This document shows positions 3,498 through 41,161 of a stretch of 41,161 bases of DNA, piece after piece (the first letter of the stretch is position 1; each line of letters opens with the position of its first letter). The stretch comes from an uncultured Dehalococcoidaceae bacterium (GTDB lineage: Bacteria; Chloroflexota; Dehalococcoidia; Dehalococcoidales; RBG-16-60-22). The notes under the pieces were generated by a model, which was not told where the DNA came from, searched no databases, and worked only from the letters and a program-made list of their open reading frames with translations. The stretch covers positions 5,826 through 46,986 of the forward strand of contig CAZPAS010000002.1 of the NCBI GenBank assembly GCA_964584575.1, given 5' to 3'. The translations under genes and the position numbers were made by a program.

Positions 3498-3875
3498 GTG
3501 CAGGATTTGATAAAAGAATTCATGGCGCAGAAGAAATTCGCTGTGGTCGGGGCTACCGATAATCCGGAAAAATACGGACACCAGGTACTCGTTAACCTGA
3601 AAAAGAGGGACTACGAGGTATACCCGGTTAATCCGCGTCTGGAGACGGTCGAAGGGATGAAGTGTTACGCCACCATATCCGACCTGCCGGAGAAAGTGGA
3701 TGTCGTGGACTTCGTTGTTCCCCCGGCTGCCACCGAGTCCATTCTCAAGGACTGCCTCAAGCTGGGACTCGACCGCATCTGGCTCCAGCCCGGCTCGGAG
3801 AGCGAGACGGCTATCAAATTCTGCGAGGACAACAATCTGAAAGTGGTGCATGGCGTCTGCGTCATGATGAACTGA
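3498..3875 (+). CDS. CoA-binding domain protein
   Basis: KKFAVVGATDNPEKYGHQV ... VDVVDFVVPP ... IWLQPGSES pattern. GTG start. Confidence 0.8.
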   Translation: MQDLIKEFMAQKKFAVVGATDNPEKYGHQVLVNLKKRDYEVYPVNPRLETVEGMKCYATISDLPEKVDVVDFVVPPAATESILKDCLKLGLDRIWLQPGSESETAIKFCEDNNLKVVHGVCVMMN

Positions 3876-3889
3876 ACGGGAGTAAACGC

Positions 3890-4186
3890 ATGAAATCATA
3901 CGAACTGGAACCCAGGTACGGGACGAACCAGATTCCGGGCAAATGCCTGAAATGCCTCGGCGAGCATGAAATGAATAACTGCCTCCTGGAACTGCTGCGG
4001 GACGATGAGGACGACGAGGAGGTAATACAGAGATTCGAGGCGCTGGTCACCTTTTTGCAGTCGCCGGAATCCAAAAAACTGCGAGATGATTCCGAGAAAT
4101 TACTCTCGGAAGGGAAAAAAGTCACCTTAAAAATAAACGTGGACAGTAACACGGATAAACCGAGCTATGAACTCGTTACAGAATAA
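3890..4186 (+). CDS. hypothetical acidic protein with a CLKC..C motif
   Basis: ATG at 3890 after a GGGAG SD, in frame in the longer 3662 ORF whose 5' part overlaps the CoA-binding gene. No family recognised. Confidence 0.45.
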   Translation: MKSYELEPRYGTNQIPGKCLKCLGEHEMNNCLLELLRDDEDDEEVIQRFEALVTFLQSPESKKLRDDSEKLLSEGKKVTLKINVDSNTDKPSYELVTE

Positions 4187-6868: not shown

Positions 6869-7738
6869 GTGTCAAATGGTAATCATATTTTCACTCTACG
6901 AAACATGGTCACGAATATCACCCAAAAACCAACAGCAATAAGATCAGTATCCCGCGCGGTTAAAATACTTGTATGTTTAGGCAACAGTATGAACACCGTC
7001 ACGGATATTGCTAACTGCTGCAAGCTCAGCAAGCCCACGGTATACCGGCTGCTCCAGACGCTGGAAGAATCGCTCATGGTAACGCAGGACCCCACCACCC
7101 ACCGCTATTACCTGGGTCCATTGATTAACAGAATCGCCTCCGACCCCCGGACCAACCATCATTACCTTATCAACTGCGCTCTGGAAGAACTGACCCACCT
7201 GTGGAACCTGTCCGGGGAGACCGTGGAGCTGAACATGATGGTCGGACTCCAGTATATCCGGCTGTATGAAATCCAGAGCAAGTACGAACTCAAGGTGGTC
7301 AACGGACCCGACCCCGTGGGGCCGGTATACGTGGGGGCAACGGCTAAAGTGCTGCTGTCCCAGCTGGAAGACAGCGAATTGAAGTCTGCCTTAAAGAGTA
7401 TTAAAATAAGTCGGGTTACCGAGCACTCGGTTATCAACAAAAAAGAACTCATGGAACAGGCCAAAGAAATCAGACGGCAGGGGTATGCCATCAGTTACGG
7501 GGAGAGAATCCCGGACGCCTTATGTATATCCGCCCCGATAAAAGACTACTTCTGGCCGGTTGCCCTGAGCCTGGTAGGCCCGGTGAATCGACTGGAGCCG
7601 AGAGTAGACGAGATAATCAAGGAAGTGGTAACTAGCGCCAACCATATTACCGGTACTATTACCGAGTTCTTCAAAGCAAAGGGGGTGATTGCCAGCGAAC
7701 AGGTTATCAAAAAGAAACAACCTATTCAGTACCCGTAA
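6869..7738 (+). CDS. IclR-family transcriptional regulator (start 6869 GTG or 6905 ATG)
   Basis: N-terminal winged HTH (SVSRAVKILVCLGN..MNTVTDIANCCKLSKPTVYRLLQTL) and a C-terminal IclR effector-domain pattern. Confidence 0.85.
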   Translation: MSNGNHIFTLRNMVTNITQKPTAIRSVSRAVKILVCLGNSMNTVTDIANCCKLSKPTVYRLLQTLEESLMVTQDPTTHRYYLGPLINRIASDPRTNHHYLINCALEELTHLWNLSGETVELNMMVGLQYIRLYEIQSKYELKVVNGPDPVGPVYVGATAKVLLSQLEDSELKSALKSIKISRVTEHSVINKKELMEQAKEIRRQGYAISYGERIPDALCISAPIKDYFWPVALSLVGPVNRLEPRVDEIIKEVVTSANHITGTITEFFKAKGVIASEQVIKKKQPIQYP

Positions 7739-7748
7739 AGGAGATAAA

Positions 7749-8774
7749 ATGAAGATGAAAAAAGCAATAATGATACTATTCGCCGCAATCCTGATTTTAA
7801 TGACCGTCGGCAGTATCGTGTCCTGTGAAGAGGAAAAACCCGCGGAGCCAGTGGTCCTGAAATTTGCCAGCGCCGCTACGGGTAATTATCAGGAAGGCGA
7901 GCAGGCTTTCGCCGATGCGTTCAACGCCCGCTGCGGCCCTGATTATACCATTCAGTATTACGGCGCCGAACAGATGCTGTCGTTTCCGGAGCTTCTTGAC
8001 GGTGTAAGAACCGGAGCCGCCGACCTAGGCGCTGTTACTCCCAACTTCAACTCTTTCGACGAGCCGAAGCTGGGCGCGGTGGAAATGCCGTTCCTGCTCA
8101 ATAACCTTGACGCCCATATCGCGGCCGTGCCGGGTTTATTCCCGCTATACGCCGAGATACTGGAAAATCAGTTCAACCAGAAACTGCTGTGTCTCCACAA
8201 CTATACCGGAATGGCGCTCATATCCACCAAGCCGGTTAAAACCATGGATGACTGGGACGGACTGCTGGTCCAGTCTATCTCTCCCGTGATATCGTCCATC
8301 ATAGAAGCCCTGGGCGGCTCCCCGGTATCAGGGCAGCCGTACACCGAGTCCTACTCGCTTATAGAGAAAGGAACGGTTGACGGGGTAATAACTGCGCCGG
8401 CAGCCATGCGCATCTTCGCGTTAACCGATGTCGCGAAATACATGACATCAGCCTACATGGTCCCGGCCGTACACGGCTTTTCCATCAACCTGGACACCTG
8501 GAACAGCCTCCCCGATGATATCCAGGATATCCTGGCCGAGGAAGCCAAAAAAGAATCCGACATCATCGACCAGTGGCTGAAGGGTGAATGGATTACTGAC
8601 CATGAGGCCATAGCCGCCGCCGGGGTTGACATATACACCGTACCCCAGGCGGAGATAGACAAGTGGAAAGCGGCCTGCCAGCCAATCATCGACGAACTGA
8701 TGGCGACATACGGTGACTTCGGCGTGAAGGTAATGGAGATTGCCGACGCGGCGAACGCCAAGTATCCCAACTAA
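7749..8774 (+). CDS. dctP: TRAP transporter substrate-binding protein, DctP type, lipoprotein
   Basis: ATG 7749 after an AAAGGAG SD. Signal peptide ending in the lipobox IVSC. ELLDGVRTGAADLG is a DctP-like segment. Confidence 0.85.
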   Translation: MKMKKAIMILFAAILILMTVGSIVSCEEEKPAEPVVLKFASAATGNYQEGEQAFADAFNARCGPDYTIQYYGAEQMLSFPELLDGVRTGAADLGAVTPNFNSFDEPKLGAVEMPFLLNNLDAHIAAVPGLFPLYAEILENQFNQKLLCLHNYTGMALISTKPVKTMDDWDGLLVQSISPVISSIIEALGGSPVSGQPYTESYSLIEKGTVDGVITAPAAMRIFALTDVAKYMTSAYMVPAVHGFSINLDTWNSLPDDIQDILAEEAKKESDIIDQWLKGEWITDHEAIAAAGVDIYTVPQAEIDKWKAACQPIIDELMATYGDFGVKVMEIADAANAKYPN

Positions 8775-8796
8775 TAAAAAAATAGACACTATGATA

Positions 8797-8822
8797 CGCC
8801 CGCGGCTTTTAAGTCGCGGGCG
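8797..8822 (+). promoter_or_regulatory. intercistronic GC hairpin CGCCCGCG-10 nt-CGCGGGCG between dctP and dctQ
   Basis: A perfect 8-bp stem was read directly. No U-tract follows. Confidence 0.45.
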
Positions 8823-8865
8823 GTCACCCTGTGGGAAATAAGTTAATTCAACCGGGAGTAAAAAT

Positions 8866-9408
8866 TTGTTTAGTAAAGTGATGCAGAAACTGGATCACTG
8901 GATGGCTCGCATCACCGGCAGTCTTCTGCTGTTGTGCGGGGGGCTGGTATTGCTGATGGCGTGGCTTCAAACCTACGGCGTGGTAAAGAGATATGCCTTC
9001 AATGCTCCCGATCCCCTCGCCTATGAGCTCAGTACGATGTTCCTTCTCTTCAGTGGCGTCCTGGCCGTAGCCGGGGTGGAAAAGCTGAACCAGCATGTCA
9101 GGAACGACCTTATCGCCTCCCGTTTTCCAACCAGAATGAAGGCTATCGTTAATACCATCTTCCCTGTTTTGGCGCTTGTTTTTTGCGTCGTACTTACCTG
9201 GAAGAGCCTGGATAACGCGATTTACGCGCTACAAATCGGCCAGACCAGCATGTCGCCCTGGGCGGTGCCATTAGCCCCGTTAAAATTCATGGTAACCTTT
9301 GGTTATACCCTGCTCTGTCTCGTACTTATCGGGAAATTTGCACAAGGTATAGTTTTAATCAGGGACAGTGGGAAACACAACCAGGTGGAAGAACCACAAG
9401 ATTCATGA
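8866..9408 (+). CDS. dctQ: TRAP transporter small permease
   Basis: Four hydrophobic segments and position between dctP and dctM. TTG start 7 nt after a GGGAG SD. Confidence 0.8.
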   Translation: MFSKVMQKLDHWMARITGSLLLLCGGLVLLMAWLQTYGVVKRYAFNAPDPLAYELSTMFLLFSGVLAVAGVEKLNQHVRNDLIASRFPTRMKAIVNTIFPVLALVFCVVLTWKSLDNAIYALQIGQTSMSPWAVPLAPLKFMVTFGYTLLCLVLIGKFAQGIVLIRDSGKHNQVEEPQDS

Positions 9409-9430
9409 TAATTAATAAATCGAGGTAGTA

Positions 9431-10732
9431 ATGGACTTTACAACAGCAGCTATCGTGTGCGTTGTCGGAATGCTTTTTCTAATGCTGATGGGCATGCACG
9501 TCATTTACGCCCTGGGATTTACTGCCCTATTTGTTGCTTATTTTACCTACGGAGCTTTCAGCCTGGATAAAATAGGCTGGACCACGTTCAATACTCTCTA
9601 TAACATAAACTGGATACCCCTGCCCCTGTTCGTTCTTATAGCCTGTCTTATTTCCGAAACGAAAATAGGTGAAGACATCTACGGAGCCGCCCGGAACTGG
9701 CTGTCACGCGTCCCCGGGAGTCTCATTGTTACCAGTATCTGGGGTGAAGCCGCTATGGCCGCTGCAATCGGTACGAGTACCGCCACTATCTTAGCCGTGG
9801 GGAAAGTGGCTGCACCGGAATTTGAAAGATACGGTTATGATAAGGGACTGGCGATGGGCGGTTTATGCTGCGGCGGCGTGCTCGGGCCCTTAATCCCACC
9901 CAGCGCCGGCATGATTATCTATGGCGTTCTCTCGGAGACATCCATCGGGCATCTCTTCATGGCAGGCATGGTACCGGGGGTTATGCTGGCCCTGATGCTG
10001 GCGGCGGTAGCCATTATCATCTGCTGGCGTAATCCGAAGCTCGGTCCTCCGATTGGCGGAGTCGCCTGGAAAACGCGTTTCTCCTCACTAAAGAGAGTCT
10101 GGCCAATCGTGGTGGTGATGCTCTCCATACTGGGTTCGATTTATATGGGCGTAGCCTCTCCAACCGAAGCCGCCGGCGTCGGCTGCGTGGTAGTGCTGAT
10201 AATAGGTTTCTTCGTTTTCGGCCTGCGCTGGCAGGGTCTCAAGCGGGCTTTACTTGAAACGGCAATCATCAACGGTATGATTCTGTTTATGATGGTCGGC
10301 GCCTGGCTGTTTTCCTACGTTATCGGCACTTCTCACGTGGTTACTGCTATCACCGGTTTCGTTACATCATCAAGCATGTCTCCGTGGTTTGTGATTATCG
10401 CCATAAATGTCCTTCTCCTGATTCTGGGCTGCTTTATCGACGCCATCACTATTATGCTGCTGACGGTACCTATCTTTGTTCCTATAATCGTCGCGCTGGG
10501 TTTTCACCCGGTATGGTTCGGCGTTCTGTACGTGGTCAACATGCAGATAGGCTTGATTACTCCGCCGATGGGACTGGAACTGTTCCTGATGAGGACCGCC
10601 TTTGATATCCCCGTGGACAAGCTCCTCCGAGGGGTAACGCCTTTTCTGATTGCCCTGTTCGTATTCCTGGCTATCTTAATAGCATTTCCCCAGATAAGTC
10701 TCTGGCTTCCCGGTATGATGAGGGGCGGCTAA
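9431..10732 (+). CDS. dctM: TRAP transporter large permease
   Basis: 433-aa polytopic protein with a DctM-like layout. GAGG SD. Confidence 0.9.
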   Translation: MDFTTAAIVCVVGMLFLMLMGMHVIYALGFTALFVAYFTYGAFSLDKIGWTTFNTLYNINWIPLPLFVLIACLISETKIGEDIYGAARNWLSRVPGSLIVTSIWGEAAMAAAIGTSTATILAVGKVAAPEFERYGYDKGLAMGGLCCGGVLGPLIPPSAGMIIYGVLSETSIGHLFMAGMVPGVMLALMLAAVAIIICWRNPKLGPPIGGVAWKTRFSSLKRVWPIVVVMLSILGSIYMGVASPTEAAGVGCVVVLIIGFFVFGLRWQGLKRALLETAIINGMILFMMVGAWLFSYVIGTSHVVTAITGFVTSSSMSPWFVIIAINVLLLILGCFIDAITIMLLTVPIFVPIIVALGFHPVWFGVLYVVNMQIGLITPPMGLELFLMRTAFDIPVDKLLRGVTPFLIALFVFLAILIAFPQISLWLPGMMRGG

Positions 10733-10845: not shown

Positions 10846-11595
10846 ATGTCCACTCCACGAGATTACTCCGCGTTTGATAAATTAAATCTGGAAAGGAAGC
10901 CCGTAGGCGTCAAGTTTACGGCACTCAAACCGGAAGGAATTAACCGGATACGGGAGAAAAGGTTCCTCTGCGAGATGTTCAAGGAGGCACAGGAAGGAGA
11001 CCCCTTTTACGTCCAGGAAGAGGATTTCTTATGCGTCGAGCCGGTGATATTGGGAATGAAAGACCCGGAAACGGCGCTCGTCAGCGGGGCGGCAGGTGGA
11101 GGTGCGGGGCTTTTTAAAGAGCCGCGCGCCAACAGTAAACTCTACCGGTACGTTCCCAGGATGCTCAAGGGTTCGGTCAAGTATGTCGCCTTTTCCCCCA
11201 TCGACAAGTTGACCTTCGACCCGGATGTCGTGATTATAACCGCCAACGTAAGTCAGGCGAAGTCTATCTTAAGGTCGGACTGCTATACCTCCGGGGAAGG
11301 CTGGTCATGCCACGGAACGCCCGTGATGGCCTGCTCCTGGCTCTATGTCTATCCGGTCGTCACCGGCAAAATGAATTTCACGATTACCGGACTCAGCCTG
11401 GGCATGGAAGCAATCAACGTGCAGATACCGGAGGGACTTTTCCTCATTTCCATTCCCTGGAACATGATGCCGACGGTACTGGAAAACCTGCAGGACCCCA
11501 ATCTGTACCGCAGCTGGCGTTCCTCGGGGAGAGAGGAACACTCTAAAAAATGGGAGAACCGGCTGAACCAGCTACACCAGGAACTGTCCGGTTAA
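10846..11595 (+). CDS. DUF169 family protein, tandem copy 1
   Basis: DYSAFDKLNLERKPVGVKF, FDPDVVIIT, SQA and CSWLYVYP motifs. GAAGGAGG SD. Confidence 0.8.
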   Translation: MSTPRDYSAFDKLNLERKPVGVKFTALKPEGINRIREKRFLCEMFKEAQEGDPFYVQEEDFLCVEPVILGMKDPETALVSGAAGGGAGLFKEPRANSKLYRYVPRMLKGSVKYVAFSPIDKLTFDPDVVIITANVSQAKSILRSDCYTSGEGWSCHGTPVMACSWLYVYPVVTGKMNFTITGLSLGMEAINVQIPEGLFLISIPWNMMPTVLENLQDPNLYRSWRSSGREEHSKKWENRLNQLHQELSG

Positions 11596-11607
11596 CAGGA
11601 GGTTGAT

Positions 11608-12351
11608 ATGCAGCGCGATTATTCCGTTTTTGATAAATTCAAGTTCGAAAGAAAGCCCGTGGGCATCAAGTTTCTACTGAATAAACCGGAAGGCATCAAG
11701 CAACTGGATAAAGGGCTAACCTTTTGCGAGATGCTCCGGGAAGCCCAGAAATCGGAGCCTTTTTACGCCAAAAAAGAGAATTTCACCTGCATGGGACCGC
11801 GACTGCTGGGCATGAGCGACCTGGAACCGATTGCCGAGAGCGGAGAAATCGGCGCTTCGGACGGAATCTACCAGGAAGCCCGGGCCAACCGGAGAATCTA
11901 CCAGCACATCCCCAAGCTGGCCAAGGATACGGTCAGATACGTCGCCTATTCTCCGGTGGACAAGCTTACCTTCGAACCGGATGTCGTGGTTTTCACAGCC
12001 AGCGTGAGTCAGGCGGAGGTTCTCCTGCGGGGACTGGCATATGCCACCGGCAGGATAATGACCACCAGAACCACCCCGGCGGTGGTATGCTCCTGGTTGT
12101 TCGTCTATCCCTTCGTCAGCGGCGAAGCCAACTACTCGATTACCGGACTCGGCTACGGCATGAAAGCCAGGAATGTATTCCCGGAAGGACTGATCCTGAT
12201 TTCCGTACCCTACGACCTTCTCCCCGGGCTGACGGAAAATCTGGGCGAGATGAAATGGGAGCTTCCCGCCTATGCTCTCAAAGACGATGAGAGAAACGAC
12301 TATTTTAAGAAAGCCATGGAAGCGATAATGAAACGCTATATGGATAGCTGA
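11608..12351 (+). CDS. DUF169 family protein, tandem copy 2
   Basis: DYSVFDKFKFERKPVGIKF, FEPDVVVFT and CSWLFVYP motifs. AGGAGG SD 12 nt after the previous stop. Confidence 0.8.
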   Translation: MQRDYSVFDKFKFERKPVGIKFLLNKPEGIKQLDKGLTFCEMLREAQKSEPFYAKKENFTCMGPRLLGMSDLEPIAESGEIGASDGIYQEARANRRIYQHIPKLAKDTVRYVAYSPVDKLTFEPDVVVFTASVSQAEVLLRGLAYATGRIMTTRTTPAVVCSWLFVYPFVSGEANYSITGLGYGMKARNVFPEGLILISVPYDLLPGLTENLGEMKWELPAYALKDDERNDYFKKAMEAIMKRYMDS

Positions 12352-12375
12352 TATAGATATCACAGGGAGGTTGCT

Positions 12376-13134
12376 ATGAGAAAGTACAGGACAGATTTAT
12401 CCGTCTTCAGCAAGCTTGACCTGGAATATCCACCGGTGGGCGTCAAGTTCCTGGTTACCCGACCGGAAGGCATGGAGCAGCTGGATAAAGCCATGCCTCT
12501 GTGTGCGATGGTTAAGGAAGCGCAGGATAGAGACAAGCCTTTCTATATCACCAGCGAAAACGAGAACTGCGGCGGCAGGTCGACGCTGGGGTTCGAAGGC
12601 CCTTCTCCGATTGCGGAAAGCGGGCAGGTGGGGATAAAGTACGGTATCTTCCAGGAGGCGCGCGCCAACGGCAAGATGAACCAGCAGGCCCCGAAGTTCC
12701 CCATGGGCACGGTCAACTACGTGGCTTTCGCCGGGCTGGACAAGCTCGACTTCGAGCCCGACCTCCTGTTCATCGTTGCGCCTACCAGTCAGGCGGAAAT
12801 AGTACTGCGGGCGGCGAGCTATTCCACGGGAGAAATCTGGTCGAGCAAGATATCGATGGTGGGGGCATGCGCCTGGATGTTCACCTATCCGTTCCAGAGC
12901 GGCACTATCAACTACGTACCCACGGGACTTACCTTTGGCATGAAGTCATGGAAGGTCTACACGGAGGGATTCATTATATTGTCCATCCCGTATAACTGGC
13001 TGCCGGTCATTGTCCAGAACATGAACCAGATGGAATGGGTGCTGCCTTCGTACATGGATACGTCGGAGGAATTCCTCGCCCGGCATAAAAAAGTGATGGG
13101 AGAACTCGCCAAAGAGTTCATGAATCCCGAATAA
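12376..13134 (+). CDS. DUF169 family protein, tandem copy 3
   Basis: DLSVFSKLDLEYPPVGVKF, FEPDLLFIV and CAWMFTYP motifs. GGGAGG SD. Confidence 0.8.
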   Translation: MRKYRTDLSVFSKLDLEYPPVGVKFLVTRPEGMEQLDKAMPLCAMVKEAQDRDKPFYITSENENCGGRSTLGFEGPSPIAESGQVGIKYGIFQEARANGKMNQQAPKFPMGTVNYVAFAGLDKLDFEPDLLFIVAPTSQAEIVLRAASYSTGEIWSSKISMVGACAWMFTYPFQSGTINYVPTGLTFGMKSWKVYTEGFIILSIPYNWLPVIVQNMNQMEWVLPSYMDTSEEFLARHKKVMGELAKEFMNPE

Positions 13135-17712: not shown

Positions 17713-19026
17713 CTAAAAGAATAGACTGCCGATTTGATATATCAGGGTGGCTACCACCCACCCCAGCACCAGCGTATAGGAAATGGTAAAGATTGTCCAC
17801 TTCCACGAGCCTGTCTCCTTCTTGATGGTACCCAGCGCCGCCACACAGGGAATATACAGTAAAATCATAGTCATAAAAGCAAAGGCCACCAGCGGTGTCC
17901 AGCCGAGTTGCGCCGCGATGGCATTCCCAATCCCGCCGGATGCCCCGGCACCGGCCAGCAGCGTGCCGAACGCTCCGACGACCGCTTCCTTGGCAAGCAC
18001 CCCGAACACCAGCGCTACCGCCGACTCCCATTGTCCGAATCCCGCCGTGGAAAATATGGGTGCAACAGCCCTGCCGATATGTTCCAGTACATCAAAATAG
18101 TTAAGCATCCAGATGAGCACCACTGCCCCGAAAATCAGGGTCCCGGCGCGCGACAGGAAAGCCCAGCCGCGCTCCCACATATGCGCCAGTACCGTCACCA
18201 CCGTAGGCAGGCGGTACGGGGGCAGTTCCATGACAAAGTGCCCGCTCTCGCCGGAAACCAGCTTCTTGCGGAAGAGCCATGCCAGCAGAATCGCCAGAAT
18301 GACGCCGATGGCGTACATGGAAAAGACCACCAGCCCCTGGTAAGCCGTAAAGAATGCAGCAGCTAACAGGGCATAGACCGGCAACTTGGCACCACACGAC
18401 ATCAGGGGAGTAACCAGTATAGTTACCAGCCTGTCCCGCGGGTTTTCAATAGTGCGGCTGGACATGACGGCCGGTACGGTGCAGCCAAAGCCCAGCATCA
18501 GCGTTACGAAGGAGCGACCGTGCAGGCCGATTCTGTGCATCAGGCGGTCCATGACGAATGCCGCCCGCGAAAGGTAACCGGTATCTTCCAGGATAGAAAG
18601 GGCGATATACAGCAGGAATATCACGGGTACAAAGGACAACACCGCCCCCACCCCACCGATGATACCATCGGATACCAGCGAACTCAGCCAGGCGGGTGAT
18701 ATCCCGGAAACCTGCGCCGCCAGCCAGTCCAGTCCCTGGTTAATCCAGTTTATCAGAGGTCCGGATACAACGAAGGTAAACTGAAATACTCCGTAGAGAA
18801 TCAGTAGAAAAATGGGTATACCCAGCCAGCGATTAAGGATAATACGGTCGATTTTGTCCGTAGCCGTTTCCTTCTCGACGGCGGGTTTCCTGAGGACATC
18901 CCGCATGAGACCGCTGATGAACCCGTAGCGGGCATCGGCAATCAGTGTCTCGGCGTCATCACCGTGAACTTTCCTCAGGTGCTCCAGGCTGGCGTCTTTT
19001 ACCTGTAATATCTCCGCGCTATCCAA
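17713..19026 (-). CDS. feoB: ferrous iron transporter FeoB, membrane (gate/nucleoside-recognition) portion encoded as a separate ORF
   Basis: 437 aa, polytopic. IADARYGFISG linker followed by FeoB-type TM repeats. TTG start 1 nt after the G-domain ORF stop. Confidence 0.9.
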   Translation of the reverse strand: MDSAEILQVKDASLEHLRKVHGDDAETLIADARYGFISGLMRDVLRKPAVEKETATDKIDRIILNRWLGIPIFLLILYGVFQFTFVVSGPLINWINQGLDWLAAQVSGISPAWLSSLVSDGIIGGVGAVLSFVPVIFLLYIALSILEDTGYLSRAAFVMDRLMHRIGLHGRSFVTLMLGFGCTVPAVMSSRTIENPRDRLVTILVTPLMSCGAKLPVYALLAAAFFTAYQGLVVFSMYAIGVILAILLAWLFRKKLVSGESGHFVMELPPYRLPTVVTVLAHMWERGWAFLSRAGTLIFGAVVLIWMLNYFDVLEHIGRAVAPIFSTAGFGQWESAVALVFGVLAKEAVVGAFGTLLAGAGASGGIGNAIAAQLGWTPLVAFAFMTMILLYIPCVAALGTIKKETGSWKWTIFTISYTLVLGWVVATLIYQIGSLFF

Positions 19027-19027
19027 T

Positions 19028-19705
19028 TCAAGCCTTCTTGATCTTCTCGATTATTTCACGGTCGTCTTCCAGTAGCTTGATGCCCAGCCACCTTGGCGAA
19101 TAGCCCTTCGCCAGCGGACTGCCGGAGACAGCCTCCTCCATCTTAGCAAGCTCCGCCTCCACGTCATGACCGTACTGTATACTGATTCCACTTACCGCGA
19201 TATCCCCCTCCGCAACACTGATAATAGTCTCCAGCAGCTTATCGGTCCCCTGATTCTTCGCGGCAATCATAGGCACCACCGGCGAACCCAGCAGATTCGA
19301 TAGTCCTTCAGTGTCGATTTGATATCCCCGCGACTCGGCGACATCCATCATATTGAGGGCGATTACCAGGGGTGCCTTCATCTCGAGGAACTGCACGGTG
19401 AGGTAGCAGTTGCGTTCCAGGTTGGAAGCATCGACGACATCCACGACCACATCGGGCTTTTCGTCGACCACGTAGTCGCGCGCGATAACCTCGTCCAGCG
19501 AGTAAGCCGTCAGGCTGTAAACACCGGGCAGGTCGACCACGCGGATACGGCGCCCTTTATAATTGCAGGTGCCTTCTTTTTTCTCCACCGTCACCCCGGG
19601 CCAGTTACCCACGTGCTGCCGGGCGCCGGTAAGATTATTGAATACGGTGGTCTTGCCGGAATTGGGATTTCCAGCCAGGGCGATAGTAATTTCTTTCTTG
19701 CTCAT
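19028..19705 (-). CDS. feoB: FeoB N-terminal GTPase domain encoded as a separate ORF
   Basis: G1 GNPNSGKTT, G3 DLPG, G4 NMMD. 225 aa, ending in TGA. Confidence 0.9.
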   Translation of the reverse strand: MSKKEITIALAGNPNSGKTTVFNNLTGARQHVGNWPGVTVEKKEGTCNYKGRRIRVVDLPGVYSLTAYSLDEVIARDYVVDEKPDVVVDVVDASNLERNCYLTVQFLEMKAPLVIALNMMDVAESRGYQIDTEGLSNLLGSPVVPMIAAKNQGTDKLLETIISVAEGDIAVSGISIQYGHDVEAELAKMEEAVSGSPLAKGYSPRWLGIKLLEDDREIIEKIKKA

Positions 19706-31509: not shown

Positions 31510-32148
31510 ATGAACGCATCTACCCAAAAGCAGTTCGTCGCTTTTCTCTCCACCCATCGCCTTGCGGCTTTAACTGACGGCGTCTTCGCAATCGTTATGA
31601 CATTACTGGTACTGGAGATTAGCATCCCGGAGATTGTGCCGTCATTGGCGCATACTGAACTGCCCCACAGACTTATTGAACTATGGCCCCAAGTATTGAG
31701 CTATATAATCAGTTTTATAATCCTGGGCCTGTTCTGGTATCTCCATCATATGGCTTTTCATCATATCAAACGTTCTGATAGCGGACTTATATGGCTAAAT
31801 ATAGTTTTCCTCATGTTCATCGCCTTGATACCGTTTTCCACAGCCCTGTTCGGTAGTTTCGCAAAGGAACAGCTACCGCTTATTATTTACATAAGCAATA
31901 TAATCGTTGCCAGTATCATGAGATTATTAATCTGGACATACGCTACCGGCAAGCACCGCCTGGTGGATAAGGATATCAGCCCTCGTTTAGTAAAGTGGGA
32001 CAAGATAGGCTCACTCGGATTCTGTATTATCCTTATGCTGATGATTGGTGTTTCTTTTATCAGCGTCGTTGCCGCCCGTTCTATATTTGCCCTCCTGGGA
32101 GTTTTTGGTATCACGTCGCAATTTTTCGCGAGGAAGTTTGAGGGGTAA
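31510..32148 (+). CDS. DUF1211/TMEM175-family putative potassium channel
   Basis: RLAALTDGVFAIVMTLLVLE first-helix signature and six TM segments. Confidence 0.8.
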   Translation: MNASTQKQFVAFLSTHRLAALTDGVFAIVMTLLVLEISIPEIVPSLAHTELPHRLIELWPQVLSYIISFIILGLFWYLHHMAFHHIKRSDSGLIWLNIVFLMFIALIPFSTALFGSFAKEQLPLIIYISNIIVASIMRLLIWTYATGKHRLVDKDISPRLVKWDKIGSLGFCIILMLMIGVSFISVVAARSIFALLGVFGITSQFFARKFEG

Positions 32149-38622: not shown

Positions 38623-39411
38623 ATGAATAACTTAATCGGCGTCTATACCATCTGGTACCGGGACGTGCTGCGTTTCTGGCAGGACAAAACCCGCATGTTG
38701 AGCGCGCTGCTTTTCCCTCTTTTCTTCCTCTTTATCTTCGGCAGCGGGCTGCGGGGCAGTATCGGCATGATGGGTGGCGGCGTGGACTTCATCCAGTTCA
38801 TGTACCCCGGCATCATCGGCATGTCCGTACTGATGGGGGCTTTCATGTCCGGCGTGTCCATCGTCTGGGACCGGGAGTTCGGCTTCCTGAAAGAGGTGCT
38901 GGTGGCGCCCATCAGTCGCGTCTCGGTGGCACTGGGCAGGACGCTCGGTTCGGCGACCGTCGCCACCGTACAGGGAGTGATGATACTGGTGCTGGCACCG
39001 GTTATCAAGGTATCTCTCTCCGTCTGGATGGTGCTGGCACTGATACCGCTGATGTTCCTGCTGGCAGCTTCCATGGGCTCGCTGGGCATCCTGCTGGCGT
39101 CGCGCATTAAGTCCACGGAGGCTTTCCAGGCTATCATGCAGATGCTGATGTTCCCCATGATGTTCCTCTCCGGGGTGTTCTTCCCCGTGAACGACTTGCC
39201 AGCCTGGATGAGCTTTATCGTCAAAATAAACCCGGCTTCCTACGGTGTGGCCACTATCCGCGCCGTAGTCCTGGGAAATCCACCGGAAAACCCCTTCACC
39301 CTCTACCTGTTCGGCCACGCCATGAGCATCTGGGAAAACATCATGGTAATGGCGGCGTTCGGCTTCATCATGATTATCCTGGCAATGTGGTCGTTCGGCC
39401 GGCAGGAATAA
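38623..39411 (+). CDS. ABC-2 type transporter permease
   Basis: Six TM segments and position after the ATPase gene. Confidence 0.85.
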   Translation: MNNLIGVYTIWYRDVLRFWQDKTRMLSALLFPLFFLFIFGSGLRGSIGMMGGGVDFIQFMYPGIIGMSVLMGAFMSGVSIVWDREFGFLKEVLVAPISRVSVALGRTLGSATVATVQGVMILVLAPVIKVSLSVWMVLALIPLMFLLAASMGSLGILLASRIKSTEAFQAIMQMLMFPMMFLSGVFFPVNDLPAWMSFIVKINPASYGVATIRAVVLGNPPENPFTLYLFGHAMSIWENIMVMAAFGFIMIILAMWSFGRQE

Positions 39412-39450
39412 AAAAACAGCCAGCGAATGGATTCGAACCATCGACCGGCG
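39410..39450. repeat. orphan copy of the tRNA-Thr 3' end plus downstream A-run (left direct repeat)
   Basis: 41/41 identity with 41081-41121. Contains the T-arm string GGATTCGAACC on the plus strand. Confidence 0.9.
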
Positions 39451-39515
39451 TTTTTGCCAGCTTGTTCCCCTTGGTGACCTTCAGAAAATGCCTCCACGAA
39501 ATTCATGTATACTCA

Positions 39516-39544
39516 TTGACATTACCATAGCTAATGTCTATCAT
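39516..39544 (+). promoter_or_regulatory. promoter TTGACA-17 nt-TATCAT upstream of rdhA
   Basis: Consensus -35 with 17-nt spacing, read directly. Implies a leader of roughly 115 nt. Confidence 0.5.
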
Positions 39545-39666
39545 GTTGAAAACGCCAGCACAAAGTTTCATCAAGTGCGTAGAGGCATGGTGATTTACCT
39601 CATATCCGAACGAACGGGAAATCCCTTAATCAAGCGGTTGGTACCAGCGGAAACAGAAAGGAGCGC

Positions 39667-41049
39667 ATGGTGATGAAGTATCACGGCCCAGAGCGTAAAA
39701 GCATGACATTTGGTGAGGAGAGAGGCATTGACGGCGGTGGTTCAGGCCCCTCGAGATACCATGACCTTGATGATTTTAAAGCATCACCGGCAGCGGAGAG
39801 GAAATTACCGTGGTGGATAAAGGAAGTTGATAAACCGACCGTAGAAATTGACTGGGGTCGAATGAAGCGCTTTGATTCCAGTAATATCATGTTTGTTAAG
39901 GGTTTTGCTGAAGCTATCGGTCCCGATAATGCCATGAAATTGGGGGGACAAGCGGTAGAGTACGCAACCAAATCCATATTAGAAAACGAGCCGGGGTACT
40001 CCCTGAGGGAAAAGGCATTGGTCGCCGGCGGCTGGCTGACATCGCTCTTAACCACGGAACATGCGTTCCTCGGTCCCGAACTAATGGTTCCTTTCGGCAT
40101 GTCAGGCATACCTGACGACCTTAAATACCCTCGCTATGAGGGTACGCCCGAGGAAAATACACGAATGGTCCGGGCTGCAGCAAAACTTTACGGAGCCGAT
40201 TCCGTCGGTGTTGTAGAACTCGATGAGAATACCCGAAAACTGATTTATGAATTCGACGGCTGGGATGGGAAAAAGTGGGAATTCGAGGATGTAGACAAAG
40301 CGTACGAAACGGAAAAGAAGAAGGTGATACCTTATAAAGCGAAGTGGGTGATTGTATACACTATCCGCATGTCCGCGGCGTCCCTGGCTACCGCACCAAC
40401 AGCGCTGGCTACCGCCGCCTCATCGCTGGCCTATTCTGAAGGTACTTCCGTCCAGCTTCGCCTCCAGCAGTTTATACGCAGACTCGGCTATCAGTGTCTT
40501 GCCGACGGCAACATGGGTACTTCAGGTAACAGTCCCGGCTTTGGCGTACTTGCCGGGCTGGGTGAGTTAAGTCGTTTGAACAGGATGCTTTCCCCCAGGT
40601 GGGGGCCCTTCGTGCGGGTATACAAGGTGATTACCGATTTGCCACTGGCTCCTACTAAACCAATAGATGCCGGGATATTTCGCTTTTGCCGTGATTGTAA
40701 GAAGTGTGCCGAGGTCTGTCCGAGCAATGCTCTCAGCATGGATAAAGAACCATCTTGGGAGATCCAAGGACACTGGAACAACGCCGGCGTCAGGACTTAC
40801 TACGAGAAAGCCCCTAATTGTTTTTCACATTGGCTGAGTATAGGCGGTCATGATTGCGGTATCTGCCTCGCTGCCTGTCCCTTTTCCAAGCTGGATAAAT
40901 CGTTCATACACATACACAACATGGTGAGGGAAATTGTGTCTACTACCCCTGTATTTAATAAAATGTTCAGAAAGCTGGACACAGACCAAGGTTACGGAAT
41001 GTCGCCTGAATCATGGTGGGACACTGACCTGCCTCCGCACGGAATATAA
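39667..41049 (+). CDS. rdhA: reductive dehalogenase homologue (RdhA-like corrinoid/Fe-S protein) lacking a Tat signal
   Basis: YHDLDDF...KLPWWIKEVDKPTVEIDWGRMKRFD N-terminal region, and Fe-S motifs CRDCKKCAEVCP and C..(11)..CGICLAACP. Confidence 0.85.
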   Translation: MVMKYHGPERKSMTFGEERGIDGGGSGPSRYHDLDDFKASPAAERKLPWWIKEVDKPTVEIDWGRMKRFDSSNIMFVKGFAEAIGPDNAMKLGGQAVEYATKSILENEPGYSLREKALVAGGWLTSLLTTEHAFLGPELMVPFGMSGIPDDLKYPRYEGTPEENTRMVRAAAKLYGADSVGVVELDENTRKLIYEFDGWDGKKWEFEDVDKAYETEKKKVIPYKAKWVIVYTIRMSAASLATAPTALATAASSLAYSEGTSVQLRLQQFIRRLGYQCLADGNMGTSGNSPGFGVLAGLGELSRLNRMLSPRWGPFVRVYKVITDLPLAPTKPIDAGIFRFCRDCKKCAEVCPSNALSMDKEPSWEIQGHWNNAGVRTYYEKAPNCFSHWLSIGGHDCGICLAACPFSKLDKSFIHIHNMVREIVSTTPVFNKMFRKLDTDQGYGMSPESWWDTDLPPHGI

Positions 41050-41080
41050 TAATCCGTAAAACAACCTGAACGGCAGGCAG

Positions 41081-41121
41081 AAAAAAACAGCCAGCGAATG
41101 GATTCGAACCATCGACCGGCG
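41081..41121. repeat. right direct repeat, part of the intact tRNA-Thr and its downstream T-run
   Basis: 41/41 identity with 39410-39450. Confidence 0.9.
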
Positions 41122-41160
41122 GTTTACGAAACCGCTGCTCTACCCCTGAGCTACGCTGGC
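41089..41160 (-). tRNA. tRNA-Thr (anticodon CGU)
   Basis: The reverse complement folds as a cloverleaf: acceptor GCCAGCG/CGCTGGC, D-stem GCTC/GAGC, anticodon stem GCGGT/ACCGC with loop TTCGTAA, T-stem GATGG/CCATT with loop TTCGAAT. CCA is not encoded. Confidence 0.9.
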
Positions 41161-41161
41161 A

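Follow-up and report, generated by a model that had tools for sequence, protein, structure and literature searches.

Near the right end of a 41,161-nt stretch of DNA from an uncultured Dehalococcoidales bacterium (the window), a homolog of the reductive dehalogenase gene rdhA lies between two copies of a direct repeat and next to a threonine tRNA gene. On the left is the gene for an ABC-2 type transporter permease (38623-39411, + strand; PF01061, 117 bits), which has genes for an ABC ATPase and a PadR regulator upstream of it. The permease has 262 amino acids, as it does in all of the relatives. On the right is the tRNA-Thr(CGU) gene (41089-41160, minus strand), which ends 1 nt before the end of the window.

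We compared this locus with other genome loci and metagenome contigs, which we number L001 to L115. When we scanned species-representative genomes with the ABC-2 protein, we obtained ~20 loci from metagenome-assembled genomes (MAGs) of Dehalococcoidales, with protein identities of 79-89%. Among the loci discussed below, L003, L007, and L009 are from MAGs, L098 is a metagenome contig, and L115 is the closest relative that we located. We deduced what lies to the right of the tRNA from L101, which is 97.5% identical to the window over the 478 nt that they have in common, and from L111, which is 99.9% identical to the flank of L101 and whose overlap with the window is limited to the tRNA. L111 and L002 come from one sequencing run. 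L002 encodes the window's exact ABC-2 protein, and so does L001.

The repeat duplicates a chromosomal junction

The window holds exactly two copies of the 41-nt sequence AAAAAAACAGCCAGCGAATGGATTCGAACCATCGACCGGCG, at 39410-39450 and at 41081-41121. They are on the same strand and are offset by 1671 bp. We found no matches to the 41-mer in dinucleotide-preserving shuffles. Without gaps, the repeat can be extended to 55 nt with 52/55 positions identical (39400-39454 and 41071-41125, both given on the + strand), and this extension takes in a CGGCAGG that is common to both copies. All three mismatches are clustered at the ends of the extended repeat, so that the 41-nt core is perfect.

The right copy overlaps an intact tRNA. 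Both ARAGORN and Rfam (RF00005, 67.7 bits) identify tRNA-Thr(CGU) at 41089-41160; the CCA is not encoded, and a T-run follows. The core of the right copy is comprised of 33 nt of the tRNA and an 8-nt A-run. These 33 nt span the 3' strand of the anticodon stem, the variable loop, the T-arm, the acceptor strand, and the discriminator. (In the extended copy, the last 37 nt, at 41089-41125, are within the tRNA.) The left copy is an orphan: it overlaps the TAA stop codon of the ABC-2 permease gene, its tRNA-derived part is at 39418-39450 (33 nt), and neither ARAGORN nor Rfam calls a tRNA there. In other words, the insert is directly on the 3' side of an intact tRNA-Thr, and the 3' portion of the tRNA is repeated at the distal boundary. 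A preliminary description of this DNA had reported the two perfect repeats with their shared CGGCAGG, had identified the right copy as the last 33 nt of an intact tRNA-Thr plus its T-run, and had viewed the left copy as an orphan fragment at the ABC-2 stop codon. We reached the same conclusions on all of these points.

The repeat is not a copy of the tRNA alone. It includes 8-22 nt of flanking sequence from outside the tRNA, and the last 7-10 nt of the ABC-2 permease gene (CGGCAGG...) fall inside the extended repeat, so what is duplicated is a chromosomal junction: the end of the ABC-2 gene, the A-run, and the 3' part of the tRNA. In the left copy, CGGCAGG corresponds to the final codons of the ABC-2 gene and is conserved in all of the relatives. 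In the right copy, CGGCAGGCAG matches the 3' end of the ABC-2 gene in the allele that is found in L115, L007, and L004. In the right copy, CGGCAG also closes a 28-nt tail, which accompanies this rdhA in other genomes too. At the left junction, GGCG|TTTTTGCC, the identity between the copies ends at GGCG, which is short of the anticodon loop and leaves 37 nt of tRNA with one mismatch.

A solitary rdhA with foreign composition

The only gene between the two copies is rdhA (39673-41049, + strand), which encodes a protein of 458 amino acids. The protein matches PF13486 (92.6 bits), TIGR02486 (299 bits, where the cutoff is 160), Fer4_7, and Fer4_16, and it is similar to the reductive dehalogenase PceA (4UQU; E = 6e-47). 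It has two iron-sulfur motifs, CRDCKKCAEVCP (CxxCxxCxxxCP) and CGICLAACP (CxxCxxxCP). Alignment to homologs, with the conserved ATGAAGTATCAC, supports a start at the ATG at 39673 (MKYH) rather than the start at 39667 that was proposed in the preliminary description.

Respiratory RdhAB systems are recognized by a twin-arginine translocation (TAT) signal and by an adjacent rdhB. We found neither for this gene: the N-terminus of the protein (MKYHGPERKSMTFGEERG) does not contain a twin-arginine RRxFxK signal, and there is no rdhB open reading frame (ORF) between rdhA and either copy of the repeat. Judging from these features, the encoded protein is a putative cytoplasmic-type (TAT-less and rdhB-less) RdhA homolog.

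The 222 nt between the left copy and rdhA (39451-39672, + strand; GC content 0.45) are specific to this cassette. They contain a sigma-70-like promoter match, TTGACA-17-TATCAT, at 39516-39544 (11/12 positions), which would give a leader of ~125 nt. The leader has no match in Rfam, and the leaders of homologous genes align to it only at the ribosome-binding site and the start codon, so we rejected the idea of a riboswitch or another conserved RNA. The 222-nt region has no similarity to the upstream regions of other rdhA genes or to any of the loci that we compared. We also looked for pseudogene debris in this region, using tblastx and blastn against all of the compared loci and a six-frame reading, and found nothing. 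On the other side of the gene is the 28-nt tail (41050-41077, + strand), which aligns with L107, L109, L106, and L101. The tail ends with CGGCAG and so overlaps the start of the right repeat.

The GC content at third codon positions (GC3) of rdhA is 0.53, compared to 0.81 for the ABC-2 gene and 0.75 for the ABC ATPase gene. Across the window, the mean is 0.68 with a standard deviation of 0.07, which puts rdhA at z = -2.1. The gene is compositionally foreign, and the unit that contains it has no recombinase. The preliminary description had already identified the sole gene as a reductive dehalogenase homolog, had noted its promoter, and had judged by eye that its third codon positions were richer in A/T than those of its neighbors; the profile matches, the 11/12 promoter match, and the GC3 values bear this out.

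We also noticed an imperfect 21-nt tandem duplication inside rdhA, at 40384-40425 (LATAPTA/LATAASS). The homolog in L064 has it too.

Empty sites in related genomes

The left flank of the locus is collinear with L009, L098, L003, L004, and L007 over 6-7 kb. Five relatives (L115, L003, L007, L009, and L098) have an empty site: the stop codon of the ABC-2 gene is followed by a spacer of 19-22 nt and then by an intact tRNA-Thr. In four of these (L003, L007, L009, and L098), the alignment of the flanks runs from the ABC-2 gene to the tRNA and jumps from 39454 to 41083 of the window. The tRNA at the empty site is 100% identical to the window's in L009 and L098, and 98.7% identical in L115 (78/79 nt, including flanking sequence). 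The fifth, L115, has the ABC-2 gene that is closest to the window's (94% identity for the protein and 88% for the DNA), and a response-regulator gene lies after its tRNA. A response regulator is also found past the tRNA in L007, L009, L011, L018, and L059. The ancestral order was therefore ABC-2, tRNA-Thr, response regulator. None of the loci with empty sites contains a relative of the window's rdhA. Given the empty sites in five relatives, the comparison of these loci shows that the 1.67-kb segment (39451-41080 plus one copy of the repeat) was inserted relative to this ancestral order.

The preliminary description had predicted such an empty site. Sites of this kind do exist in the five relatives, but the exact sequence that was predicted for the window's own strain is absent from the metagenome contigs that we searched. 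The closest empty site is at 88% nucleotide identity, and none was located within the same species. We also considered a large local tandem duplication that was followed by a deletion, but there is no second copy of the cassette or of rdhA in the window.

On the other side of the tRNA, L101 and L111 contain a tyrosine-integrase pseudogene, which is truncated at its N-terminus and frameshifted. It is on the same strand as the tRNA and ends ~64 nt from the tRNA's 5' end, with a TRAP transporter beyond it. In the window's lineage, the gene order thus departs from the ancestral one on either side of the tRNA.

Both junctions were seen in independent assemblies. A JGI contig, L001, contains the left junction (the ABC-2 gene, the orphan fragment, and 300 nt of the cassette), and the sister-strain contig L101 contains the right junction (the 3' end of rdhA, the repeat with an identical CTGAACGGCAGGCAGAAAAAAAC, the tRNA, and the integrase remnant). 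This makes it unlikely that the locus is an assembly artefact. A chimera formed across the repeated tRNA fragment would be consistent with two facts: a Logan contig, L002, breaks within the repeat, and no single independent contig covers both junctions. Alternatively, the left copy could belong to a degenerate second tRNA that has nothing to do with an insertion, which the preliminary description had raised as a challenge to its own account. Besides the lack of an ARAGORN or Rfam call, the unique DNA to the right of the left copy does not resemble a tRNA: it matches the 5' half of the tRNA at 10/40 positions in register, and its local alignment score equals the mean for shuffled sequences. The lack of similarity to the tRNA's 5' half past the repeat shows that no degenerate second tRNA is present at the left copy. 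Taken together, we consider an artefact of either type to be very improbable.

Many elements have used this tRNA-Thr

Genomic islands commonly insert in tRNA genes. Orphan 3' fragments of tRNA-Thr are found beside the ABC-2 gene, with other cargo, in L004 and L008, and beside an ABC-2-linked gene in L014. Other orphan fragments are found in different contexts in L084, L096/L103, and L105. One arm of an element is common to L004 and L096/L103, while the chromosomal flanks differ. These other fragments are 38-51 nt long, and those in L004, L008, L014, L096/L103, and L105 retain the whole anticodon loop. The fragment in L084 is the shortest (38 nt) and reaches only the TTTA of the loop.

Full-length tyrosine integrases are encoded on the 3' side of an identical tRNA in L087/L092, L080, and L085. 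The integrase from L087/L092 has 391 amino acids, with arm-binding, SAM-like, and catalytic domains. None of the integrases from L080, L085, L087, L092, L101, or L111 could be tied to the particular junctions in the window. In L076, two complete tRNA-Thr genes are 827 nt apart, with only fragments of an integrase between them. As judged from these comparisons, tRNA-Thr is shown to be a recombination hot spot that has been used repeatedly and independently by integrase-bearing elements.

In the same part of L076 (486-1731), each copy of tRNA-Thr(CGU) is followed by ~105 nt that correspond to the 3' end of an antisense integrase. The N-terminal fragment of the integrase lies between the two tRNA copies and the C-terminal fragment lies past the second copy, which makes this a tandem decayed structure.

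The integrase pseudogene near the window belongs to a family that is found immediately upstream of tRNA genes, on the same strand. Its members are truncated at the N-terminus, are often frameshifted, and have 27-230 amino acids remaining. Besides L111 (3068-3691) and L101 (478-1114, reverse strand), we found members in L093, L090, L099, L102, L073, and L079, and in L112 (220-1003), L113, and L114. The neighboring gene is tRNA-Thr(CGU) in many contigs and tRNA-Leu(TAA) in L112-L114. The 3' end of the integrase and the next ~60-110 nt are homologous at the tRNA-Thr and tRNA-Leu sites, and they hold a promoter-like TTGACA-17-TAGAAT. The family has 858 homologs at E < 1e-20, mostly of 200-260 amino acids. 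These remnants may be the scars of elements whose attP bore a copy of the whole promoter and tRNA.

The tRNA-Thr genes themselves differ in their 3' ends. Genes without an encoded CCA and with a T-run directly after the tRNA are found in the ABC-2-linked lineage (the window, L003, L007, L008, L009, and L115), while CCA is encoded in most of the other genomes that have the identical 33-nt 3' part. Just downstream of the window's tRNA and T-run is a small hairpin, GCCTG-CCGTT-CAGGT, followed by TGTTTT (41064-41078, minus strand). This hairpin is built partly of CGGCAGG, and it could be a terminator for the tRNA that was brought by the incoming DNA. Also, an inverted pair surrounds many tRNA-Thr genes (in L080, L079, L090, L070, L088/L089, L101, and others), with TTTAGCTTC directly before the 5' end of the tRNA and GAAGCTAAA directly after the encoded CCA. 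We speculate that this pair could lengthen the acceptor stem of the tRNA precursor.

How the segment may have been integrated

We lean towards the view that the segment is a horizontally acquired islet that was integrated at a tRNA-Thr att site and that resembles a cis-mobilizable element (CIME) in having no integrase. The events would be as follows. A DNA circle that carried the rdhA unit together with a single repeat copy would recombine with the chromosomal ABC-2/tRNA-Thr junction, and the crossover would be inside the 41-nt core. This would leave an orphan tRNA 3' fragment beside the ABC-2 gene (the attL-like junction, GGCAGGAATAAAAAAAC + 33-mer + GGCGTTTTTGCCAGC) and restore the intact tRNA at the opposite end (the attR-like junction, CTGAACGGCAGGCAGAAAAAAAC + 33-mer + GGCGGTTTACGAA). 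The predicted attB is then GGCAGGAATAAAAAAAC + 33-mer + GGCGGTTTACGAA, and the predicted attP of the circle is CTGAACGGCAGGCAGAAAAAAAC + 33-mer + GGCGTTTTTGCCAGC. Because the islet encodes no integrase, a tyrosine integrase would have been supplied in trans.

If two alleles of the junction had exchanged by one crossover within the 41-nt core, mismatches would be expected only at the ends of the repeat, as we observed. The mismatches at the outer end would be allelic differences between the incoming and the resident ABC-2 sequences, and at the inner end the mismatch would mark the start of the cassette. The incoming copy bears the end codons of an ABC-2 gene (of the L115/L007/L004 allele), so its source was probably this same junction in a related strain. 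Before that, rdhA was probably captured beside the tRNA by an illegitimate join at the CGGCAG microhomology. The circular intermediate, the catalysis by an integrase, and this two-stage history are what we infer from the junctions. Today, the islet would be the relic of something like a CIME and not an autonomous island.

Several observations weigh against this scenario. First, no recombinase or transposase domain (including PF00589) was found in the cassette or in any ORF of the 41-kb window, and tblastn with the L101 and L087 families of integrases gave zero matches in the window. This is in line with the preliminary description, which had called the cassette integrase-less. The only integrase nearby, on the sister-strain contigs, is truncated and frameshifted, and it is on the 5' side of the tRNA. 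Second, the junctions are unusual: the repeat continues beyond the tRNA for 22 nt, reaching ABC-2 coding sequence, unlike a generic attP; the left junction does not include the anticodon loop, unlike the other orphans at this tRNA; and the right junction sits on the CGGCAG microhomology with the rdhA tail. Third, the exact empty site of the window's strain is absent from the metagenome contigs, as discussed above, and the 33-mer is absent from viral contigs. (For this last reason, we rejected a phage origin.) Fourth, the insertion is older than the 2.5% divergence between the window's strain and its sister strain. Finally, the best match to rdhA elsewhere is just 87% identical at the amino acid level, and we located no other cassette that is nearly identical, which gives no indication that the unit moved recently. 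More generally, we found no sign that the islet is mobile at present.

The preliminary description had interpreted the repeats as the att scars of an inserted island. We support it in part: there is an insertion at the junction of the ABC-2 gene and tRNA-Thr, and the cargo has foreign composition. We also found that the site is a hot spot. The repeats are candidate scars of site-specific recombination, and the unit may once have been mobile.

Could the islet be what remains of a larger, integrase-bearing island at tRNA-Thr, after internal deletions (one of them at CGGCAG) left rdhA alone? Integrase-bearing elements do exist on the 3' side of an identical tRNA (in L080, L085, and L087/L092), integrase pseudogenes are abundant beside tRNAs in this group, and L076 illustrates extreme decay at the same site, with only integrase fragments left in its 827 nt. 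A deletion endpoint inside the orphan would also account for the missing anticodon loop. But two deletions would have to hug both rdhA and the repeats, with just 21-31 nt from the stop codon to the right repeat, and there is no debris from an island backbone or an integrase in the 222 nt upstream or the 31 nt downstream of the gene. Decay would also leave the ABC-2-like flank next to the tRNA unexplained. We consider this origin unlikely.

Two other types of element were rejected. The segment is not a transposon or an insertion sequence: it has no terminal inverted repeats and no transposase, and the duplication is 41-55 nt instead of short and fixed. Nor is it an integron gene cassette: there is no intI in the window, rdhA has its own promoter match, and the repeat is derived from a tRNA and is not an attC hairpin.

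The rdhA tail and its microhomology

The nearest homologs of the window's rdhA (75-87% amino acid identity) are also solitary, without rdhB, a tRNA, or an integrase nearby. They are found in at least six unrelated neighborhoods of lower-GC genomes. Around the closest homologs (L062-L069 and L106-L110), we found no tRNA fragments or repeats, except for a repeat in L107 that involves rsfS and the tail. At the DNA level, only the coding region and a short tail are homologous to the window (39703 or 39733 to 41063 by BLAST, with 41063 being the limit for L107 and L109). The tail at 41050-41077 is what is left of the 5' end of an ORF of 715 amino acids that lies downstream of rdhA; this ORF is intact in L107 and is present as remnants in L109 and L106. 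Every locus diverges after the tail's terminal CGGCAG.

This pattern bears on another explanation, which is that the segment arrived by a one-off illegitimate insertion, by microhomology-mediated end joining or by template switching during replication or repair. The target of 51-55 nt would have been duplicated, with joins at CGGCAG and at GGCG/TTT, so that the repeats would be a long target-site duplication and the unit would never have been mobile. The homology of the rdhA tail with L107, L109, and L106 stops exactly at the CGGCAG where the repeat starts, which places the join on 6-7 nt of microhomology. L107 provides a second case: after this tail comes a copy of local upstream sequence, from inside rsfS, that begins at CGGCAG (21 nt perfect). 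Insertion of this kind also fits the content of the repeat, which copies the local junction, including the end codons of the ABC-2 gene, with CGGCAGGCAG as in the ABC-2 3' ends of L115, L007, and L004. The loss of the anticodon loop at the left junction and the lack of a recombinase or of island backbone debris in the cassette point the same way. Overall, illegitimate insertion explains the details of the junctions better than an att site does.

However, it would require a chance strike on a tRNA that is a proven hot spot, and the boundary would also have to fall at the anticodon stem, as in the att-type orphans. The microhomology is also weaker evidence than it seems at first sight, because CGGCAGG is frequent: it occurs 32 times in the window (counting both strands), so that the probability of the coincidence is ~1e-3, not 1e-5. 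Three mismatches that are clustered at the ends, with zero in the 41-nt core, would be odd for a duplication that was followed by drift. And the microhomology at the left, GGCG/TTT, is putative. We regard a one-off illegitimate insertion as the strongest competitor of our preferred reading, though as less likely than integration of an integrase-less islet at the tRNA-Thr att site.

The homologs show some other peculiarities. In L107, the repeat is 41 nt long with 78% identity (260-300 and 2051-2091), including 21 nt that are perfect (CGGCAGATGCGCACTATCAGC). It joins the interior of an intact upstream rsfS to the DNA after the rdhA tail, and the copy begins at CGGCAG. L107 and L108 encode an identical RdhA (P0004), and from a point 127 nt before its start codon onwards their identity is 99.9%, while their left flanks (L107:1-528 and L108:1-463) are wholly different: L107 has rsfS and L108 has an AT-rich gene for a Zn-ribbon membrane protein. 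The homology of L109 starts at most 11 nt from the point where L107 and L108 diverge. These alignments suggest a recurrent breakpoint upstream of the rdhA unit. In L064-L069 (P0034), rdhA is 85% identical to the window's and is split by a frameshift into ORFs of 361 and 109 amino acids. The split state is found in at least nine contigs (six of which are shown, from six JGI samples), and it may be a fixed pseudogene or a programmed frameshift.

A more speculative idea is that the rdhA unit, with its leader, its gene, and its 28-nt tail ending in CGGCAG, is a single-gene cassette that is mobilized recurrently in marine Dehalococcoidales. It would be captured at the att sites of RNA genes or at CGGCAG targets, with integrases acting in trans, in an economy that would resemble that of integrons. 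There are some hints of this. The tails in the window and in L107 are each followed by a duplicate of local upstream sequence that starts with CGGCAG; this gene has at least six unrelated settings, in which the breakpoints lie tight against it; and, in this group, integrase genes and pseudogenes are widely found next to tRNA genes. We think it quite doubtful that such a cassette exists.

Comparison to known systems

A CIME is a segment that is flanked by attL and attR, lacks genes for recombination or transfer, and presumably arose from an integrative element and relies on the integrase of another one. Pavlovic et al. (2004) reportedly described CIMEs that derive from ICESt1 and ICESt3 of Streptococcus thermophilus. 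The islet is similar in that it is flanked by att-like repeats, has rdhA as its sole gene, and has no genes for recombination or transfer. Unlike for a CIME, no element with a cognate integrase and an identical att sequence was identified, and the repeat holds chromosomal DNA from outside the tRNA. The islet is a CIME in form only.

Williams (2002) reportedly described tyrosine integrases that use tRNA genes at sublocations in the anticodon loop, the T-loop, or the 3' end. As at such sites, the islet lies between a restored, intact tRNA and an orphan 3' fragment, the identity has its boundary at the anticodon stem, and several elements have used the site. In contrast to such sites, the islet has no integrase, the block of identity stops before the anticodon loop, the repeat runs 22 nt past the 3' end of the tRNA, and the pseudogene in the sister strain is on the 5' side. 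The islet fits the class of tRNA-integrated elements except for the integrase that defines it.

In Dehalococcoides, rdhA genes are found on low-GC islands that break synteny and are bounded by ssrA and a 20-bp repeat (McMurdie et al., 2011; PMC3146451). Of 31 such islands, 16 have a serine-recombinase module; the other 15 do not and were proposed to be cis-mobilizable elements (PMC3146451). Tandem occupancy makes ssrA a hot spot (PMC3146451). The locus in the window shares with these islands an rdhA that is downstream of a single-copy small RNA gene, a direct repeat of the 3' end of that gene, and a hot spot. But the target is tRNA-Thr(CGU), and we found no tmRNA in the window; the repeat is 41-55 nt and includes sequence from a neighboring gene, instead of 20 bp; the recombinases at this site are tyrosine integrases (PF00589) and not the serine recombinases DsiB and DsiA; the islet is a single gene in 1.67 kb, TAT-less and rdhB-less; and the host is from an uncultured, higher-GC lineage of Dehalococcoidales. 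The locus resembles the ssrA islands without integrases but is not a member of that group.

Solitary rdhA homologs that lack a TAT signal and rdhB are known from Dehalococcoidia of marine and subsurface habitats (see PMC3939436 and PMC12219181, among others). The window's gene is like these in its protein type and in its solitary arrangement. Unlike the window's gene, none of the homologous rdhA loci that we examined is beside a tRNA or has tRNA-derived repeats.

Other features of the window

The window contains four paralogs of DUF169 (at 46-789 and 10846-13134), three of which are in tandem beside an IclR regulator and a TRAP transporter (6869-10732). In L063, three DUF169 genes surround an rdhA homolog. 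FeoB is split into two adjacent ORFs (17713-19705), one for the G-domain (19028-19705) and one for the membrane part (17713-19026). The split FeoB adjoins a gene with two FeoA domains and a gene for a DtxR-FeoA fusion regulator. Two other parts of the window are compositional outliers: the gene for a TMEM175-like potassium channel (31510-32148; GC content 0.45, GC3 0.52) and an ORF without a match in Pfam (3662-4186; GC3 0.50).

Implications

Reductive dehalogenase genes are key determinants of organohalide turnover, and their spread has been documented mainly in cultured Dehalococcoides, via ssrA islands. Our results show that, in uncultured Dehalococcoidales from marine or sediment environments, a conserved chromosomal junction can gain a solitary rdhA of the cytoplasmic type within a unit shorter than 2 kb. 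The tRNA-Thr site has been used by many different elements, and the set of junctions (attL, attR, and the predicted attB and attP) can be tested by polymerase chain reaction. Were the locus just a fixed scar, it would be an ordinary case of an island that decayed, or of illegitimate capture, at a hot spot. The observation is confirmed, the evidence for the insertion is good, and the locus is a small, integrase-less example of the known habit of islands to occupy tRNA genes.

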